From assembly GCA_001029635.1 (NCBI GenBank), contig CP011209.1:80983-144982 (forward strand): a stretch of DNA of 64,000 bases. The letters run 5' to 3'. Position 1 is the first letter of the stretch; each line of letters begins with the position of its first letter. The stretch comes from Candidatus Wolfebacteria bacterium GW2011_GWB1_47_1. Its GTDB lineage: Bacteria > Patescibacteriota > Minisyncoccia > UBA6257 > UBA9933. The notes under the pieces were generated by a model, which saw only the letters and a list, made by a program, of their open reading frames with translations, was not told where the DNA came from and searched no databases. Of this stretch, positions 35,982 through 43,002 are shown piece after piece. A program made the position numbers and the translations under genes.

Positions 35982-36160
35982 ATAAATAAGCATACCATAT
36001 TACACAATACTTCTGCACGCATAATTCAAAGCACAAATTACCTACTTCTAATACGGCGGGATGATGTAATATGTATAATTATACCATCATCGCAAAGCAC
36101 ACTATATTATTTAATCCGCCAATTGAGTATACTATATACCATAATTCACTTACTTAAAAT

Positions 36161-36481
36161 ATGGAGATAATAAATCAAATACTCGGCAGCATAAGTGTGC
36201 TCATAAGTGTCGTACTTGCCATCGTTTTAATTCGATCGAGTAAATCACTCACCGGTTCATTTTTTAAAAAATACTACCGGCTCATGACTATCGCTGCAGT
36301 TATGTTTGCCGCAGGCTTTTTAATCGAAGTCATTAGAAAACCGGCGGCATTGGATTACGAGATTATGGAATTTTTCCACCATATTTCACTCATAACCGGA
36401 GCAGTTGTTCTTGTGTATGCTTCCATCGTAATGCCAAAAGAAGCAGTAAAAATATCGGAAGTCGTTAACACGCTACAATAA
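36161..36481 (+). CDS. Small 3-TM membrane protein
   Basis: Three hydrophobic segments; fills the gap between genes. Confidence 0.7.
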   Translation: MEIINQILGSISVLISVVLAIVLIRSSKSLTGSFFKKYYRLMTIAAVMFAAGFLIEVIRKPAALDYEIMEFFHHISLITGAVVLVYASIVMPKEAVKISEVVNTLQ

Positions 36482-36552
36482 TAAAAGTTTCAAAATGTGG
36501 CAATCACCACACGCAATTTAAAGGGGCCGGTCATTTGACCAGCCCCTTTAAA

Positions 36553-37242
36553 TTATTCCCCTTTCTTTTCTATATCAATCGGGGTCTTCATTTTCATAAA
36601 TGTCGGGAATCGAAATGGAATAGTGATGGTTGCCTTGGGCATGACCAGGTCAGGAACCATCAACAATAACATGGCACTAAAGAACGAAAATACGCTCGCA
36701 AGAATGAATACGATATCGAATCCAAATGCATTTGCGAGTCCACCTCCAACAAATGCGGCAACCCCGGAGGCAAGCCCGATCGTCGTACTATCAAGCGACC
36801 AATCAAACGCATAATGTTCCTTGTCTAGATGGCGGGAAAAAATGCCAGACCATGCCGGCGCATACAACCCGAATGATAAACCCTGCAAAAATGCGACGAT
36901 ATACAATGTTGAGATATCTGTAACAAGCAGGTATGCAAGCGCAGTAAACCCGGCAAGCAACAAGGCGAGGATGAGCGTATAGAAATCATCACGCTCTCCC
37001 TCGTGGCGATCAAGCGTGATGGCGACCGGCAATTGAACCAACGACTTGGTGATCCAATAGGTTGCCACAACACCGCCAACAGTGGCGACCGTCGCTCCAG
37101 GGATGGATTCAACAAGGAAGATTGAGAAGATCGGCCCAATCAATCCCCATCCACCCCACAGCATAAGGTCGGACATGACAAAAAACTTGATAATGCGATT
37201 GATTTTCAATCCGGTCGTATCGATGTTTATTTTGATTCTCAT
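36553..37242 (-). CDS. Half-size (about 6 TM) MFS-like membrane protein
   Basis: QLPVAITLDR, LQGLSFGLYAPAW; 229 aa. Confidence 0.75.
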   Translation of the reverse strand: MRIKINIDTTGLKINRIIKFFVMSDLMLWGGWGLIGPIFSIFLVESIPGATVATVGGVVATYWITKSLVQLPVAITLDRHEGERDDFYTLILALLLAGFTALAYLLVTDISTLYIVAFLQGLSFGLYAPAWSGIFSRHLDKEHYAFDWSLDSTTIGLASGVAAFVGGGLANAFGFDIVFILASVFSFFSAMLLLMVPDLVMPKATITIPFRFPTFMKMKTPIDIEKKGE

Positions 37243-37271
37243 ATAATATAATTTTAAAATTGAAGGGATGC

Positions 37272-38087
37272 TTATTCTAAGGGACTTTTAATGTTCTTCA
37301 ACATCGGGTTTGTCACTTTCGTATATATTTGCGTCGTCCTAATGTTAGCATGACCGAGTAATTCTTGCACATAGCGCACATCGACACCATTTTCCAATAA
37401 GTGTGTAGCAAAGCTGTGACGCAAAGAATGGAATGTCGCATCTTTTTGAATTCCCGCATTTTGTAATGCGCTTTCAAAAACCTTTTGTGCGGTCCGCTCA
37501 GTTAATTTTCCGCCACGTTCGCTCGCAAGTAAATATTCATTAAAATCACGCCCCGCTATCAATTTACTTATACCATTATTTAATATTTCCGGGAATACCG
37601 TAATGCGATCCTTATTTCCTTTTGCACCCTTGATATGGATTGTTAGCTCTGCCAAGTTTATGTCTTTGATCTTCATATTGACAACCTCACTAACTCGCAA
37701 TCCTCCGGCATAAGCCAATGAAACCATCAGGTTATGTTTTTCATTAGCAATGCCATCTAATAGCGATTGAATTTCGGAGCGGGACAGCACTACTGGCAAT
37801 TTGCTCGGTGTCTTGGCAAAACGGATATCTATTTTTCCGCGATAATTCAACACATTCCAGTAGAAGAAATTGATGGCCTGCAAAGCTTGGTTGGTTGTTT
37901 GTGAAGATTTACCGGCATCTACCTTAGACAGCAGATATGTTTTAATAAAATCCACATCGACTAAATTGAGATTCTCGCCTTTTGCGCGTAAATAGTCGGC
38001 AACACACACACGATAACTCTTGATCGTTTTAGGGCTATAATTCCGCAGCCGCAATTCGTCCTCCAGCTTTTTTAAATAGACGTCCAT
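37272..38087 (-). CDS. Tyrosine recombinase (integron-integrase-related N-terminal SAM-like domain, no IntI insertion)
   Basis: LRNYSPKTIKSY; GLRVSE, KGAKGNKDR, HSLRHSFATH, LLGH, TTQIYT give an intact R-K-H-R-H-Y set; 271 aa. Confidence 0.93.
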   Translation of the reverse strand: MDVYLKKLEDELRLRNYSPKTIKSYRVCVADYLRAKGENLNLVDVDFIKTYLLSKVDAGKSSQTTNQALQAINFFYWNVLNYRGKIDIRFAKTPSKLPVVLSRSEIQSLLDGIANEKHNLMVSLAYAGGLRVSEVVNMKIKDINLAELTIHIKGAKGNKDRITVFPEILNNGISKLIAGRDFNEYLLASERGGKLTERTAQKVFESALQNAGIQKDATFHSLRHSFATHLLENGVDVRYVQELLGHANIRTTQIYTKVTNPMLKNIKSPLE

Positions 38088-38191
38088 ATAGACATGGTAT
38101 ATAATAATGAAGGTGTGTTCAAATTATATGTGATATTCGCCTAGTCAGCAATATTGAGTAGCATATACGAAAACACTTCGCATATAAATGA

Positions 38192-38367
38192 GTTACGCAA
38201 AATGTCGTTCGGCTTCACTCCATTTTTCGTAACGTGGAGCTTTGCGAGGGTTGGGCTTCCTCTCTTCCCTATCGGGACAAGTAAACAAGCCTCGCACCAC
38301 ATCGCCTAACAACCGCTTGGCGGCGTCCGCCCAAATCCCGCTCCGCGGGACTTCGCAAAGCTCCACG
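38192..38367 (+). repeat. Repeat A, copy 1
   Basis: 176 bp identical in all three copies by eye. Confidence 0.97.
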
Positions 38368-38523
38368 TTCAACGAAATAAATTTTTTATCTTGGTGAAAA
38401 TTTAAAGTTTTGTGAGATAAATGGGGACAGAAAATTTGATTTTTTATTAATTTAAAGAGGGGGATACGGAGTTTTTCTGCTCTTTGGGGAGCAGAAAAAA
38501 TTAATTCATTTATAATCAAAAAT

Positions 38524-39135
38524 ATGCTCGAAAAACCTTACATTCCATCGCAAGCTGAAATGGAAAAAGCTGAAACAATGGCAGCTGATTATCAAAAAAC
38601 ACCCGAACAAGTCAAGGAGGATGAAGAAAAAAAAGACAAAAACAATGAGGCTCTAATTTCAGATTTAGCTGGAATAGAGATTTACGGCTCTAATTCAGTG
38701 AGTGAGCAGATAAAACAAAATTATGCTGAAATGGCAATTAAAGTCATCACTGATATAAATAAAAGCGCAGGAAAAAAATTATCATGGACTTTTAGGTTAT
38801 TTGGACCGAAATCAGATAAGGATATGAAATTCAAAATGGAGGAAACATTGAATAATATGGCAGCAGCTTTACGTCTTGAGCATGAGAAGGCAGCAAACGA
38901 GGTGGGCCTAATTCGCAAGAGAGGCGATAATACAGAAATGGATAAATTTATTGCGGAAAGAGAACTAGAAAGAAAAGGCCTCTTGAAAAGTTTAAAGGAA
39001 GGATATGCCGATTTTGTATTAAATAAAGACGAAGGAACAATTCAGATAGGTATGACATCGGATGGCTATAAACTTAAATCTGGAGAATTAATGAATTTTG
39101 ATGAAATAACAAAATACATCAGAGAGAATATGTAA
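38524..39135 (+). CDS. Cassette 1 cargo: AT-rich, charged hypothetical protein (203 aa)
   Basis: TATAAT 7 nt before ATG; K/E-rich ORF; enclosed by inverted repeats. Confidence 0.85.
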   Translation: MLEKPYIPSQAEMEKAETMAADYQKTPEQVKEDEEKKDKNNEALISDLAGIEIYGSNSVSEQIKQNYAEMAIKVITDINKSAGKKLSWTFRLFGPKSDKDMKFKMEETLNNMAAALRLEHEKAANEVGLIRKRGDNTEMDKFIAERELERKGLLKSLKEGYADFVLNKDEGTIQIGMTSDGYKLKSGELMNFDEITKYIRENM

Positions 39136-39265
39136 TGCCGATGAGGAGTTTTGAAAAATGAAATTCACCCCTAGCCCCTCTTTCATTTTTCAAAAGAAAA
39201 AATCAAATTTTCTTATACGATAAACTAATGTATAATGAATTTAATAACGAGATAAAAAATTGACA

Positions 39266-39390
39266 TCGTCGAACAACTCATATCTGGCTCAAGAAATTGA
39301 CACTTTAATGTTTCAGATGAAAGCCAATTTCTTTCGACCCAAATTTTTTCGCAATTGCATTGCGCAAAAACTTCAGATATAAGTAACGTT
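39266..39390 (+). other. attC-like site of cassette 1
   Basis: TCGTCGAAC-A-ACTCATATCTG...CAGATATAAGT-AAC-GTT with two internal hairpins. Confidence 0.7.
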
Positions 39391-39563
39391 ACGCAAAATG
39401 TCGTTCGGCTTCACTCCATTTTTCGTAACGTGGAGCTTTGCGAGGGTTGGGCTTCCTCTCTTCCCTATCGGGACAAGTAAACAAGCCTCGCACCACATCG
39501 CCTAACAACCGCTTGGCGGCGTCCGCCCAAATCCCGCTCCGCGGGACTTCGCAAAGCTCCACG
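39388..39563 (+). repeat. Repeat A, copy 2
   Basis: Identical to copy 1. Confidence 0.97.
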
Positions 39564-39602
39564 TTGGACGAAATGCCATAAGGAAATTAGGGGGATGGCA
39601 CA

Positions 39603-40173
39603 TCGTCCAACACTGTGTATCTGGTTTCATGAAAAGGGATTCAACAAATAATCTTTTACAATTCAAAATGCCATTTTTTGGGATAAAAAAATCCGCCAAT
39701 CTTTCGAGAGGCGGAGGATGTGTTGTTTGCTGATTTATTATGTTCAGCTCATATTTTTCTTGACGACCTCGAGATTGCTTTCGAGCAGCTCTTCCTTGAC
39801 GTCGTCGTCGATGTCATCCCATGCGTTGTCCAATCCTCTGCGGCCTGTCAGATCGCCGAGGATAGCAAACAGAATTTTTTTTGCCGGTTCGGTCGGCTTG
39901 GTTGTGTAGCGCTCCTGAAACTCCTCAAGTAACGTTGTCATAAAGTCCTCCTCATGATTTTGATATATTATCCAAATGTTGTTGAATAATATATTATGAT
40001 AGCACATTATTCGTTGTATGTCAAATATAGAGGAGTAAAAATTCCAAAAATGGCTCAAGTTAAGGAAATTATTTGTTGAATTCCTTTTCATTCCACCCAA
40101 ATTTTTGCTTCTTTTATCTATTTGAACTAATATTGAGGAAGCGAAGCAAAAACTTCAGATACACAGTAACGTT
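39603..40173 (+). other. Expanded attC-like site of cassette 2 enclosing a gene
   Basis: TCGTCCAAC-ACTGTGTATCTG (39612-39623)...CAGATACACAGT (40156-40167)-AAC-GTT. Confidence 0.7.
39744..39941 (-). CDS. Cassette 2 cargo: 65-aa acidic hypothetical protein
   Basis: GAGGAGG SD, TTGACA-N17-TATCAT promoter (40024-39996), terminator about 39685-39715; MTTLLEEF...ILGDLTGRRGLDNAWDDIDDDVKEE. Confidence 0.8.
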   Translation of the reverse strand: MTTLLEEFQERYTTKPTEPAKKILFAILGDLTGRRGLDNAWDDIDDDVKEELLESNLEVVKKNMS

Positions 40174-40346
40174 ACGCAAAATGTCGTTCGGCTTCACTCC
40201 ATTTTTCGTAACGTGGAGCTTTGCGAGGGTTGGGCTTCCTCTCTTCCCTATCGGGACAAGTAAACAAGCCTCGCACCACATCGCCTAACAACCGCTTGGC
40301 GGCGTCCGCCCAAATCCCGCTCCGCGGGACTTCGCAAAGCTCCACG
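40171..40346 (+). repeat. Repeat A, copy 3
   Basis: Identical, but followed by CT instead of TT (GCT in place of the GTT core). Confidence 0.97.
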
Positions 40347-40467
40347 CTATGCGAAGACGTTGTACGAAATTACTTCTTTATTAGGTACTATAAAAATCCC
40401 GCCGATACGATCGGCGGAATTTTTTATGCTTCCCACGCAAAACCCCGGGAGTGAGCCCATGAGGACT

Positions 40468-43002
40468 TCATTCTCCCATATTCACGAACCGCACCTCCTC
40501 GCCTTCGAGCGTTAGGTGTAAATGACTCCCCTTTCGCACCTCCCCCCGCAAGATCATCTCGGCAAGCTCACTCTTGATGCGATCGTTGATCACGGTGCGT
40601 AGCGGACGGGCGCCGAATACCGGATCATAGCCAACGTTCGCCAAATGTTCCACGACGGCATTGTCGATCTCCATCGCGATGCCTTGTTCTTCGCCGAGCG
40701 TCTTTGCCAACTTTTGTATCTGCATGCGCGCAATGGCGATTGTGTCGTCGACCGACAGATTCTTGAATATGATCACATCGGAAAAACGATTCAATAATTC
40801 AGGACGGAAATATCCAGTCAATTTCTTCTTAAATTCATCCTTAATATCTTCAATATTACGCCCCGCCTCGATAGATTCCTTAATGAAATCGGAATTTGCG
40901 TTGGACGTTGCGATGACGATAGTGTTCTGGAAATCAACCACGCGCCCCACGTTGTCGGTGATGCGCCCATCGTCGAGTACCTGCAGGAAAAGATTCAATA
41001 CGTCCGGATGCGCCTTTTCGAATTCATCCAATAGAATTAGGCTATACGGCTTCTGAATCACCGACTCGGTAAGCGTGCCGCTCATCTTGCCGTCAGGGGT
41101 TCCGATAAATCGAAAGATGCTTTGCTTGTCCTGATATTCGGACATATCGAAGCGGAGCAGCAGCTGGTCAGACCCAAACTGCGTCTTTGCCAAAATCTTT
41201 GCAAGCTCCGTCTTACCGACGCCCGTAGGCCCAACAAAGAGAAATGTGGCAATCGGCCCGTTGGATCGGGCAAGTCCGCTGCGATACTGACGCAATGCGC
41301 GTGCGACTGCGGTGACCGCCTGTTCCTGGTCGATCAGATTCTGATGAATAATATCCTCGAGATTGAGTAGTTTCTCTGCTTCCTCCTTGGTCGTCTTATG
41401 GATCGGGATATTGATCTTCCGCTCGGCAACGGCGATGACGATCTCATCGGTAAGCATCTTTTCTCCCCGCTGGGTTGCGTCGGCAAGTGCCTCTTTAAGC
41501 AGATCTTCCGCACTCGCGGGAAGAAGCTTTTGTTTAAAATATTTATGAGCGATCGAAACGGCGGCTTTAATGGCTTCAAAGCTGATGACGACGTTGTATT
41601 GCCGTTCCAGGATGATGCCGGAATAGATCAAGACACGAATGGAATCATCCTCAGAAAGCTCTTCGACGCGAACCACTTCAAATGCATTGAGAAAATCGGT
41701 ATGCGGTTCGATCTCGGTCTTCATTTCCTTTGCATAAGAAGACCCGATAACCTGAAACGCATCACTGGCAATGGCCGGCAACATAAGCGTGGCCACATCC
41801 ATATACCCTTCCCCCGACGTCTTGAATAGATTATGAATATCGGGGATATAGAGGATGATATTCTTTGCCGCAATGATCTCCCGAACGACGGTATTGACCC
41901 GAGTAGAAATTTCTTCAGGCCCCGCGCCGGAAACAAGTTCTCCAATAGAAAGCGCAACAAGCCGCTTATCGAATAGCTCCTCAGGAACTTTGTCTTTGAC
42001 GATATTAAATGCCAAATGGCTGACGATGGTCTCTTTTCCACTTCCCGGATCGCCCACTAAAAGAACATTCTGCTTTGCGGCGCGAGAAAGAACATTAACA
42101 ATTGTTCCATATTCCTGTTCGTGGCCAATCAAAAACCCGACACGCTGTTCGCGAGCAAGATCGGTCAGGTCGTCGCTAAACATATCCAATGTCGGCGTAA
42201 CGCGCGCAGTCCACGCACGATTCATAATACGATGTCGCCCTCCTTTGCGACCAAACCCGCCAAGCGTGGAAGGGATAGTCTTGAGCCACGCAAATCGCTG
42301 TCGATAACGGCTAAAGATGAGTGCCTTTTGTAGATCATTTGTATCAAGCGAGAAGAGATAGAACACGCGCCGCACGGCGGCATCGTCAACCGTACCCAAT
42401 GCGGAAAAAAGATCATTGAGAGCAATATACTTTCCCCCGTTGTCATAGGCATCCATGAATGCGACCTTCACCAATATATGAATGCGCGAAAGCAGTTCGT
42501 CATGAGCATAAAGGTTCGTATTTTTGTACTTCTCGACTTCTTCATCAATCTTATGCTCAAACTCCTCCGGAGAAATCTCAAGCCGCCACAAAGCGCCACG
42601 AATGCCGTCATCCCGAATAAGCGTCTTCATGAGATGCAAATAATAGTTACCCCCGGCGATCGCGGTTTTATCAAGCGCACGGATAATTACGCGGAAACTC
42701 TTTGGTAAAAGATATTGGGTAATATTAACTCCTTCGATCTCATCTGCCTTCAGATCGGTGATCGCATGCAATGGAGTGTTAATATGTAAGGCTCGGTCGA
42801 TCAGCACCAGGGTGCACAAGATGCCGAACCAATACAACCATTCGATATCGGACAATACCGCAAGGATAGTGCCTACGGTGAATATGGCATAAAACGCATA
42901 CGTGATCAGCCCCCATAAGAAGCGCAATGATGCGGAGAATTCGAGACGCGGATCAGAGAAGGTGAGTTTTTCAACGGGAAAGTTCGTGTTCATACCAATC
43001 AA
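40468..43002 (-). CDS. ClpA/B/C-family AAA+ ATPase with N-terminal TM helices
   Basis: GDPGSGKET and GPTGVGKTE Walker A motifs, RFDMSEY, LLDEFEKAH, FRPELLNRF, GARPLR; start may be 42993. Confidence 0.9.
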   Translation of the reverse strand: MIGMNTNFPVEKLTFSDPRLEFSASLRFLWGLITYAFYAIFTVGTILAVLSDIEWLYWFGILCTLVLIDRALHINTPLHAITDLKADEIEGVNITQYLLPKSFRVIIRALDKTAIAGGNYYLHLMKTLIRDDGIRGALWRLEISPEEFEHKIDEEVEKYKNTNLYAHDELLSRIHILVKVAFMDAYDNGGKYIALNDLFSALGTVDDAAVRRVFYLFSLDTNDLQKALIFSRYRQRFAWLKTIPSTLGGFGRKGGRHRIMNRAWTARVTPTLDMFSDDLTDLAREQRVGFLIGHEQEYGTIVNVLSRAAKQNVLLVGDPGSGKETIVSHLAFNIVKDKVPEELFDKRLVALSIGELVSGAGPEEISTRVNTVVREIIAAKNIILYIPDIHNLFKTSGEGYMDVATLMLPAIASDAFQVIGSSYAKEMKTEIEPHTDFLNAFEVVRVEELSEDDSIRVLIYSGIILERQYNVVISFEAIKAAVSIAHKYFKQKLLPASAEDLLKEALADATQRGEKMLTDEIVIAVAERKINIPIHKTTKEEAEKLLNLEDIIHQNLIDQEQAVTAVARALRQYRSGLARSNGPIATFLFVGPTGVGKTELAKILAKTQFGSDQLLLRFDMSEYQDKQSIFRFIGTPDGKMSGTLTESVIQKPYSLILLDEFEKAHPDVLNLFLQVLDDGRITDNVGRVVDFQNTIVIATSNANSDFIKESIEAGRNIEDIKDEFKKKLTGYFRPELLNRFSDVIIFKNLSVDDTIAIARMQIQKLAKTLGEEQGIAMEIDNAVVEHLANVGYDPVFGARPLRTVINDRIKSELAEMILRGEVRKGSHLHLTLEGEEVRFVNMGE

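Follow-up and report, generated by a model that had tools for sequence, protein, structure and literature searches.

Introduction

The textbook example of a device by which bacteria capture genes is the integron, which is defined by an extra domain of its integrase. The attC sites of sedentary chromosomal integrons are exemplified by the repeats of Vibrio cholerae, and the CTX phage uses hairpins of single-stranded DNA (ssDNA) in exploiting Xer recombination. Cassettes which lack an open reading frame (ORF) are also known in integrons, and some of them possess promoters or regulatory RNAs, as described in PMC8876359. In class 1 integrons, cassettes ending in a site of docking-site type were reported to recombine and to influence the stability of arrays, where a mixture of site types affects excision and stability (PMC12901181). 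Here, a stretch of 64,000 nucleotides (nt) from the genome of a tiny groundwater bacterium, Candidatus Wolfebacteria bacterium GW2011_GWB1_47_1 (contig CP011209.1, positions 80,983 to 144,982), referred to as the window, was analyzed. It contains a platform composed of a gene for a tyrosine recombinase, P0001, a docking site and a cassette array in which a gene-free unit of 175 nt, here called unit A, occupies the junctions. The platform follows the logic of an integron without the extra integrase domain. Judged from sequence, it is built like an integron but is not an integron by definition, as P0001 fails the test for the IntI-specific domain. Unit A is likely a gene-free cassette of 175 bases, bounded by G|TT, which would be cut out and inserted by the adjacent P0001 as a folded single strand. 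Coordinates are positions in the window, while those in kb refer to the genome, and loci of other genomes are labelled with L and a number.

Unit A occupies the junctions of two cassette arrays

The order of the platform is recombinase gene, docking site, A, gene cassette, A, gene cassette and A. The three copies of the 175-nt unit (TT...G) in the window are situated at 38193-38367, 39389-39563 and 40172-40346, all on the forward strand, and are letter-identical. The first copy is inserted at the attI-like docking site, while the third is the last unit of the array and is followed by CT instead of TT. Each array unit starts with TT and ends with G, and the joints are at G|TT. The identity between the copies runs exactly from G|TTACGC to CCACG|, and the flanking sequence differs beyond those ends. 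The G+C content of A is 0.57, and that of the two stretches between the copies is 0.33 and 0.39. The 984-kb genome contains seven matches to A, every one inside the two arrays; a fourth full copy and three partial ones are found outside the window, at G000:C1:175981-177848. This second array (175.96-177.85 kb) lies 1.5-3 kb from oriC, between relA/spoT and rnpA, and opens with the 25-nt docking sequence known from the window and a copy of A. Then follow two gene cassettes, of LysE type and of YgjV type, the first trailed by a rearranged A and the second by a truncated A. The array is without an adjacent recombinase gene. BLAST of A against 60 relatives gave 0 matches beyond its own genome.

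In A, a start (R') and its matching box (R'') are followed by a left arm (L''), which a loop separates from a right arm (L'), and the unit closes with G. The first bases of A (R') form hairpin 1 (38192-38233, 42 nt, forward strand) with the inner box R''a (TCGTAAC), and in this hairpin GTTACG-C-AAAATG and CATTTT-T-CGTAAC face each other over 13 positions with one mismatch. The outer left arm (AAC and L''a, 17 nt, 38231-38247) is 100% complementary to positions 38353-38369 of the 3' arm, CTTC-GCAAAGCTCCAC-G|TT, which comprises L' and the junction (38351-38369). An inner left arm of ordinary type was found by direct reading at 38300-38322, where the box R''b CATCGCCTAAC is followed by a spacer and L''b GCTTGGCG, and the latter matches the 3' arm of A in 7/8 positions. 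Next to it is the motif TCCGCCCAAA, a hairpin TCCCGCTCCGCGGGA and CTTC (38326-38354). The 3' end of A shares with the attI-like docking site the sequence ACTTCGCA and a distance of 12 nt from CTTC to the junction. In addition, TGCGAGGGTTG (38243-38253) pairs with CAAGCCTCGCA (38287-38297) in 10/11 positions and shares 5 nt with the 17-bp stem. The 42-nt hairpin, the perfect 17-bp stem and the competing pairing claimed in the preliminary description are therefore all present, the last one competing only in part.

Folded as ssDNA, the 178-nt stretch reached -42.0 kcal/mol on the forward strand (z -6.3) and -44.5 kcal/mol on the reverse strand (z -6.0), and on either strand 0/200 shuffles were as good. 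In the 175-nt circle of A, 120/175 nt (top strand) or 126/175 nt (bottom strand) were paired, again with 0/200 shuffles as good. The circle had been described as almost fully paired, which is overstated, as about 70% of the circular ssDNA is paired.

A mechanical stop-free frame of 58 codons spans A on the reverse strand. In the homologues of A from other genomes, a full-length open frame is present on the forward strand in 8/10 and absent in 2/10 (L012 and L122). Indels between the homologues shift the frame, and the reading frame is not conserved. A coding reading of the 58-codon frame was ruled out, as no frame is conserved among the 10 homologues, and A is thus ORF-less in a meaningful sense, in agreement with the earlier description. 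With no conserved frame, a 3' site of its own and ends at the crossover points, A has the structure of an ORF-less cassette.

In all gene cassettes of both arrays (4/4), an R'' box ending in AAC is complementary to the cassette's own start, which lies past A. The start GTTCAAC of cassette 1 corresponds to the box GTCGAAC with a match of 6/7, and the remaining starts and boxes are GTTGGACGA with TCGTCCAAC (9/9), GTTATACGC with GCGTATAAC (9/9) and GTTAGCTG with CAGCTAAC (8/8). Each of the R'' boxes of A matches the start of A in 6/7 positions. The integron site plan R''-L''...L'-R', with AAC/GTT cores, a G|TT crossover and an R'' matching its own start, is therefore present throughout, A included. 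As the boxes match the starts of their own units, the units are expected, like those of integrons, to occur in a circular form joined at G|TT, and the gene cassettes and A are separate units. The gene is placed between R' and R'' in cassette 1 and between L'' and L', reversed, in cassette 2, and both of these cargo places are nearly empty in A. A is also INDEPENDENCE from gene cassettes: the arrays of L012, L014, L020 and L047 have gene cassettes abutting with no such element.

A-type elements form a conserved family with two alternative folds

Ten homologous gene-free elements were recovered from other Patescibacteria contigs. Their sources are L012 and L047 and, through a metagenome pattern scan (78 loci), L057, L062, L068 (two copies), L081, L113, L118 and L122. 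L122 has two copies, one of which was included in the alignment, named A2, of 11 elements. The homologues are situated at the docking site or directly past an ordinary cassette site, and the next unit is always a gene cassette. L012 and L047 have a single A-type element, at the docking site only.

The unbiased RNAalifold consensus of A2 has 44 pairs, 11 of which are changed on both sides. In the count over A2, 97.5% of cells were paired, with 11 covarying pairs against 4.5 in shuffles (0/500 reach this number) and 0-2 in slid controls. Helices 1-2, which correspond to hairpin 1, show compensatory changes at 5 pairs. The helix 54-72/196-214, where the inner AAC and the left arm pair with the right arm and the junction triplet, is 97.3% paired and has 5 covarying pairs. 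The crossover triplet itself covaries, as AAT...ATT in L068 and as AAG...CTT in the element of L031. A second, mutually exclusive fold is also kept, with 90.5% of cells paired and 7 covarying pairs, which 0/500 shuffles reach. In this alternative fold, the partner of the element start is the CATCG..AAC box of ordinary type (38300-38310 in A), and the right arm takes up a second left arm (38315-38322) in place of the outer one. Each A-type element hence possesses one right arm and two left arms, of which the outer is near-perfect and the inner imperfect, the inner being the type found in ordinary cassettes. Hairpin 1 and the outer left arm jointly represent an antisense copy of the element's own circle junction, over 24-28/28 nt in 11/11 elements and 26/28 nt in A.

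The element of L031 with AAG and CTT, which is gene-free but different from A, is found three times between the gene cassettes of this locus (233-382, 1177-1330 and 2405-2558 of the reverse complement). Another gene-free element of L031 is situated between this recurring element and the docking site.

The CCCAAA-hairpin-CTTC motif and the folding strand

Three sites of the window, at 38326, 39334 and 40092, had been described as ending in TCSRCCCAAA-hairpin-CTTC with conserved structure and unrelated sequence. The motif is present at all three, and the hairpin sequences are unrelated. In the two arrays and the loci retrieved, the pattern CCCAAA-insert-CTTC-N11-15-[G/A/C]TT was matched by 92 distinct sites. 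Among loci not selected by the motif, a closing stem of 4 bp or more is formed by 21/23 distinct inserts, compared with 1.9% of shuffles, so the description holds across genomes. In the pattern-selected loci, 18/24 inserts of other spelling close likewise. The motif thus constitutes a conserved part of the recombination sites, compensated in structure, and is a candidate for the recognition element of the recombinase that had been proposed. The motif is always positioned 11-15 nt before the G|TT junction. The spacing from CTTC to the junction is 13-15 nt in ordinary sites, including an unpaired (A/T)AC, and 12 nt in A, in 9/10 of its homologues and in the docking site.

The bottom strand folds more stably in 32/34 ordinary and 7/7 A-type sites. 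The mean fold is -22.95 kcal/mol on the bottom strand versus -20.32 kcal/mol, while control windows differ by a mean of 0.4 kcal/mol. Part of this gain is due to the invariant pairing of AAGT with ATTT next to the small hairpin, for which the bottom strand requires a G-T pair. Both arrays are situated left of oriC, on the left replichore, and their bottom strands are on the lagging-strand template. According to PMC5371416, this orientation favors folding and recombination of attC in integrons, and most sedentary integrons avoid it.

P0001 is a Xer-type recombinase without the IntI-specific stretch

P0001 (37272-38087, reverse strand) is a XerA/IntI-like tyrosine recombinase of 271 aa. Pfam search identified Phage_integrase (3.9e-42) and an N-terminal SAM_4 domain. 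The protein passes the NCBIfam model XerA_Arch (NF040815) with 228 bits against a cut-off of 220, which places it in the Xer family. On the integron-integrase model TIGR02249 (integrase_gron) it scores 214 bits, below the cut-off of 265, and the match falls in two separate stretches. In the alignment with VchIntIA (2a3v), residues 5-172 of P0001 align with 6-176 and residues 195-270 with 242-317, and about 43 IntI residues (VchIntIA 177-241) are unmatched in the intervening segment of P0001 (173-194). P0001 accordingly lacks the additional domain that IntI has around patch III. The closest solved relative is XerA 5hxy. The positions of the catalytic Arg, His-x-x-Arg, His and Tyr are retained in alignments to solved structures. 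The genome has one other tyrosine recombinase, a XerC/D-like protein encoded at 215 kb, which scores 246/241 bits on XerC/XerD and 128 bits on the integron model versus 214 for P0001. By these scores, P0001 differs from the housekeeping Xer of the genome.

The docking site is shared with related loci

The attI-like docking site, ATATACGAA-AACAC-TTCGCATAT-AAATGAG|TT (38163-38194, forward strand), was found by direct reading, and the same site is present in related loci. Relatives of P0001 (52-80% identity) were obtained from 39 loci in metagenome-assembled genomes (MAGs) of Patescibacteria, and the 35 loci with a near-full-length match were examined. A docking-site-like match to a regular expression was found at most 200 nt upstream of the recombinase gene in 33/35 loci. 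Two of the 33 matches (L022 and L036) were off-site by chance, and the true site of these loci was visible by eye. The two loci missed were L031, which has a variant spelling, and L044, where the contig ends before the site. The related loci have this site upstream of their recombinase homologue, at a distance of about 100-180 nt, and its family form is a palindrome, ATATNCGAA-AACAC-TTCGNATAT, followed by AAACGAG|TT. The arms of the site change in paired fashion between genomes, and divergence starts directly past G|TT. As in integrons, a docking site (attI) thus stands beside a divergent recombinase gene and the cassettes are inserted there.

Arrays of CCCAAA-hairpin-CTTC...G|TT sites follow wherever the loci have enough upstream DNA. 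Further sites of the motif were thereby found near related recombinases. On the array side, 14/35 contigs stop less than 250 nt from the recombinase (L013, L018, L019, L025, L026, L029, L030, L032-L034, L039-L041 and L044), often inside a G+C-rich gene-free element. By eye, at least 10/35 loci begin with a G+C-rich gene-free element carrying a local R'/R'' hairpin. Platforms of this kind are probably under-assembled in MAGs, and the early contig ends are as expected from assembly-breaking repeats.

A reading of the docking site as dif was ruled out by its position and by the separate XerC/D-like gene at 215 kb. The cumulative GC skew has its minimum near 180-200 kb and its maximum near 640 kb, and dnaA is situated at 179.96 kb. 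On GC skew and dnaA, oriC was placed near 179 kb and the terminus near 640 kb. The arrays, at 119 and 176 kb, do not represent a single site at the replication terminus.

Acquisition and variation of the arrays

The genes clpB and MFS, which flank the platform here, are about 33 nt apart in two same-genus genomes. A P0001 homologue above 34% identity is absent from all three same-genus genomes. The entire 3.2-kb platform (37243-40467) therefore represents an acquired insertion. Homologues with 72-80% identity to P0001 are present in MAGs labelled as other Patescibacteria lineages.

In the rearranged A of the second array (G000:C1:176932-177048), the 10-of-11 inverted repeat encloses a segment in inverted orientation. 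The 3' part, which comprises the inner arm and the CCCAAA motif, is lost, and a perfect complement of the left arm stands in its place, so that the whole forms a near-perfect hairpin of 117 nt. In its sequence, the rearranged copy looks like a product of fold-back (template-switch) copying.

In a metagenome contig (L072), two copies identical to A enclose a cassette which this genome does not have. In an independent sample, contig depth was 1030 on A versus 215-240 on the flanks. One contig of the run X12, from a different strain and with a depth of 3.9, shows a cassette-2-like 3' end followed by A and then by the start of cassette 1; this joint is not counted as proof of shuffling. Logan contigs of 4 runs contained no joint removing A alone and no circle junction, and this result is uninformative as contigs drop rare variants. 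The identity of the three copies, from which recent activity was earlier concluded, would fit recent spread or homogenisation, and public contigs showed neither excision nor a circle junction.

At 40347-40375, past the last A of the window, G|CT is followed by GCTATGCGAAG, an inverted right-arm core which is spelled as in the A-type elements of other genomes. Then follows ACG|TTGTACGAAAT, which resembles the start of a lost cassette.

Gene cassettes of the window

Gene cassette 1 (38368-39388, forward strand) contains an ORF at 38524-39135, encoding 203 aa, and its own attC-like site at 39264-39388. The 203-aa ORF has no protein family match. The leader (about 160 nt, 38370-38535) and trailer (39140-39215) of cassette 1 are conserved in unrelated cassettes of other genomes, while the gene is not. 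Parts of this leader and trailer are inverted repeats which bracket the ORF, and they may represent a promoter/RBS module or belong to the folded site.

Gene cassette 2 (39564-40171, forward strand) has an R'-hairpin-R'' at 39563-39611, L'' at 39612-39623 and L' at 40156-40167, with its CCCAAA motif at 40092. The reversed ORF (39744-39941) encodes 65 aa without a family match and is situated inside the L''-L' loop of the site. It has a promoter-like site of its own at 40024-39996, which is strong (11/12 with TG). A 24-nt inverted repeat with 96% identity (39629-39652 / 40068-40091) lengthens the stem around the gene.

Proposed mechanism

A is most likely a selfish ORF-less cassette which fills every junction and would have done so by transposition. 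P0001 would excise and insert the units by exchange of one strand on folded DNA. A would represent a cassette reduced to its site that recombines through a 3' site resembling the docking site, and by that route it would have come to occupy the docking sites and all cassette sites in the two arrays. The CCCAAA-hairpin-CTTC element with its flanking arms is predicted to form a three-way structure bound by protein, and the bottom strand is the predicted folded substrate, as in integrons. If the outer arm folds within the array, it would set the two G|TT junctions of A side by side on one continuous template strand. More speculatively, the docking-site-like 3' end may allow A to use the favored reaction between a docking site and a cassette site and to leave a new entry point behind. 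Equally speculatively, the perfect outer arm may act as a lock on the site or, conversely, promote its folding and a self-templated excision. Recent spread or homogenisation would account for the identity of the copies, and the rearranged copy in the second array is put forward, as a speculation, as fold-back copying at work.

The three roles earlier suggested for A fared differently. The minimal selfish cassette agrees with A as the minimal gene-free cassette of a recombinase-associated array. The adaptor has some footing in the ACTTCGCA sequence and the 12-nt spacing common to the 3' end of A and the docking site. The small RNA found no support, as there is neither an Rfam match nor a promoter or terminator consensus. 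Beyond the preliminary description, A was seen to be double-armed, with an antisense copy of its junction, to end like the docking site and to saturate two arrays, of which the second, beside oriC, has no recombinase.

A further possibility, held tentatively and with clearly less confidence than the cassette nature of A, is that A-type elements are a dedicated class of hyper-parasitic mini-cassettes, each a portable docking-site copy whose core is an antisense 'splint' for the circle junction of the element itself. The splint would allow a single folded strand to join the ends of A for excision and would permit entry into any cassette site through the favored reaction of a docking site with a cassette site. 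Every array junction would then become a place of entry, and A would govern how stable the cassettes between its copies are. If this holds, cassette recombination on folded strands would be carried out in Patescibacteria by a plain Xer-type enzyme that has no equivalent of the domain regarded as indispensable in integrons.

Several observations weigh against A as a cassette moved by P0001 as a folded strand. The IntI-specific domain is called necessary for integron recombination in PMC9668308, which cites Messier and Roy 2001, and P0001, having no such domain, may differ from integrons in its chemistry. The strict A-type signature was found in its own genome only (4 copies) among 401 sampled genomes of the class; two further hits resemble chance, and as MAG contigs often end inside such repeats, the scan says little on absence. 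Within the covarying helices of A, G-T and A-C exceptions are about equal, and A itself gives no strand signal. Much of the advantage of the bottom strand is due to a single invariant motif, and the sites are mutually related. In contigs, as distinct from reads, no single junction was polymorphic between an empty and a filled state, and neither excision products nor circle junctions were seen. Finally, the strict alternation, with A at 6/6 junctions, is equally expected from a composite site, which is the first of the alternatives.

Alternative explanations

A could be the array's own repeat, forming half of a large composite site on every cassette, like the species-specific repeats of sedentary chromosomal integrons. 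Besides the 6/6 junctions of the two arrays, this agrees with the alternation seen in L072, L122 and, with a different element, L031, and with the absence of any A-A tandem among 17 instances. We nevertheless regard it as unlikely. Each gene cassette already has a complete site, with an R'' matching its own start past A (4/4), and A has R'' boxes for its own start. Moreover, related arrays have cassettes abutting without such an element, and L012 and L047 carry an A-type element just once, at the docking site.

There is similarly little probability that A is kept for a role in transcription, as a structured small RNA, as an insulator or terminator between cassettes, or as a promoter cassette. 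Its structure is conserved with covariation and it stands upstream of every gene cassette, and ORF-less cassettes with regulatory RNAs (Xanthomonas) or promoters (Treponema) are on record in PMC8876359. However, the search of Rfam 15 over 36000-42000 gave no match covering A at E<=1 and nothing reached the gathering score in the second array, and a scan for a sigma-70-like promoter or an intrinsic-terminator consensus found none inside A. The conserved letters of A (CATCG..AAC, CCCAAA, CTTC and G|TT) are those of ordinary cassette sites, and a role in transcription leaves the covariation of the crossover triplet without explanation. Such a role would in any case be compatible with mobility of A.

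It is very improbable that A is a miniature transposon or a dispersed repeat like the repetitive extragenic palindromic (REP) sequences, moved by another enzyme and situated beside the recombinase by chance: multiple identical copies and strong hairpins agree with it, but 7/7 matches are in the two arrays, exactly at the G|TT of a docking or cassette site, homologues elsewhere hold the same position relative to homologous recombinases, and the dispersed intergenic copies, target duplications and terminal inverted repeats (beyond the site arms) of miniature inverted-repeat transposable elements and REP-like repeats are not found.

Comparison with known systems

The platform shares with Xer/dif systems a recombinase that passes the NCBIfam XerA model and has XerA 5hxy as its nearest solved relative. 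It differs from them in that its sites are 2 and 60 kb from oriC and not at the terminus, a separate XerC/D-like gene is present at 215 kb, the crossover falls beyond the palindrome by 7 nt and the sites are arranged as cassette arrays. With the archaeal and bacterial integrons defined by IntegronFinder (PMC9668308, PMC4889954), it has in common a tyrosine recombinase, a docking site and an array of cassettes with folded sites. These integrons need a match to the profile of the IntI-specific domain (PMC9668308), whereas P0001 is without that stretch. As P0001 has no counterpart to it, such screens would not call the platform an integron, and in these ultra-small bacteria of the candidate phyla radiation (CPR) standard integron screens would miss it. 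In the literature searched, with subscription journals outside its coverage, no description of a cassette platform with a Xer-type recombinase in Patescibacteria or CPR was found.

The attC sites of sedentary chromosomal integrons resemble A in being long, near-identical folded repeats between cassettes, with AAC...GTT boxes, a G|TT crossover and a bottom strand that is more stable or, as predicted for A, functional. Unlike them, each gene cassette here has a different site of its own and A is an extra unit between cassettes. Further differences are the conserved three-way element (CCCAAA-hairpin-CTTC) and the cargo that can sit inside the site loop, as in cassette 2. The orientation of 25/30 sedentary integrons, as given in PMC5371416, is also opposite to that of the arrays here. 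The Delta-attI-type cassettes of PMC12901181 are like A in having a recombination site which resembles the docking site and not an ordinary attC. In that source they are gene-bearing resistance cassettes acted on by IntI1, unlike A, whose likeness to the docking site is at sequence level only, as an 8-nt identity with equal spacing.

In the literature searched, no description was found of an antisense circle-junction copy or of two alternative left arms in integron cassettes. As a compact substrate of 175 nt, A lends itself to the study of a Xer-type enzyme on folded DNA, of the strand used and of the control of array stability and growth by gene-free cassettes. Its closest counterparts are the ORF-less integron cassettes, which, as described in PMC8876359, are like A gene-free, bounded by crossover points and provided with a folded end site of their own, and are placed first in the array or between gene cassettes. 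A differs from them in that its recombinase is without the IntI-specific domain, in having no promoter consensus and in filling every junction. It is the simplest possible passenger, an empty site, yet it belongs to a conserved family with two alternative folds.

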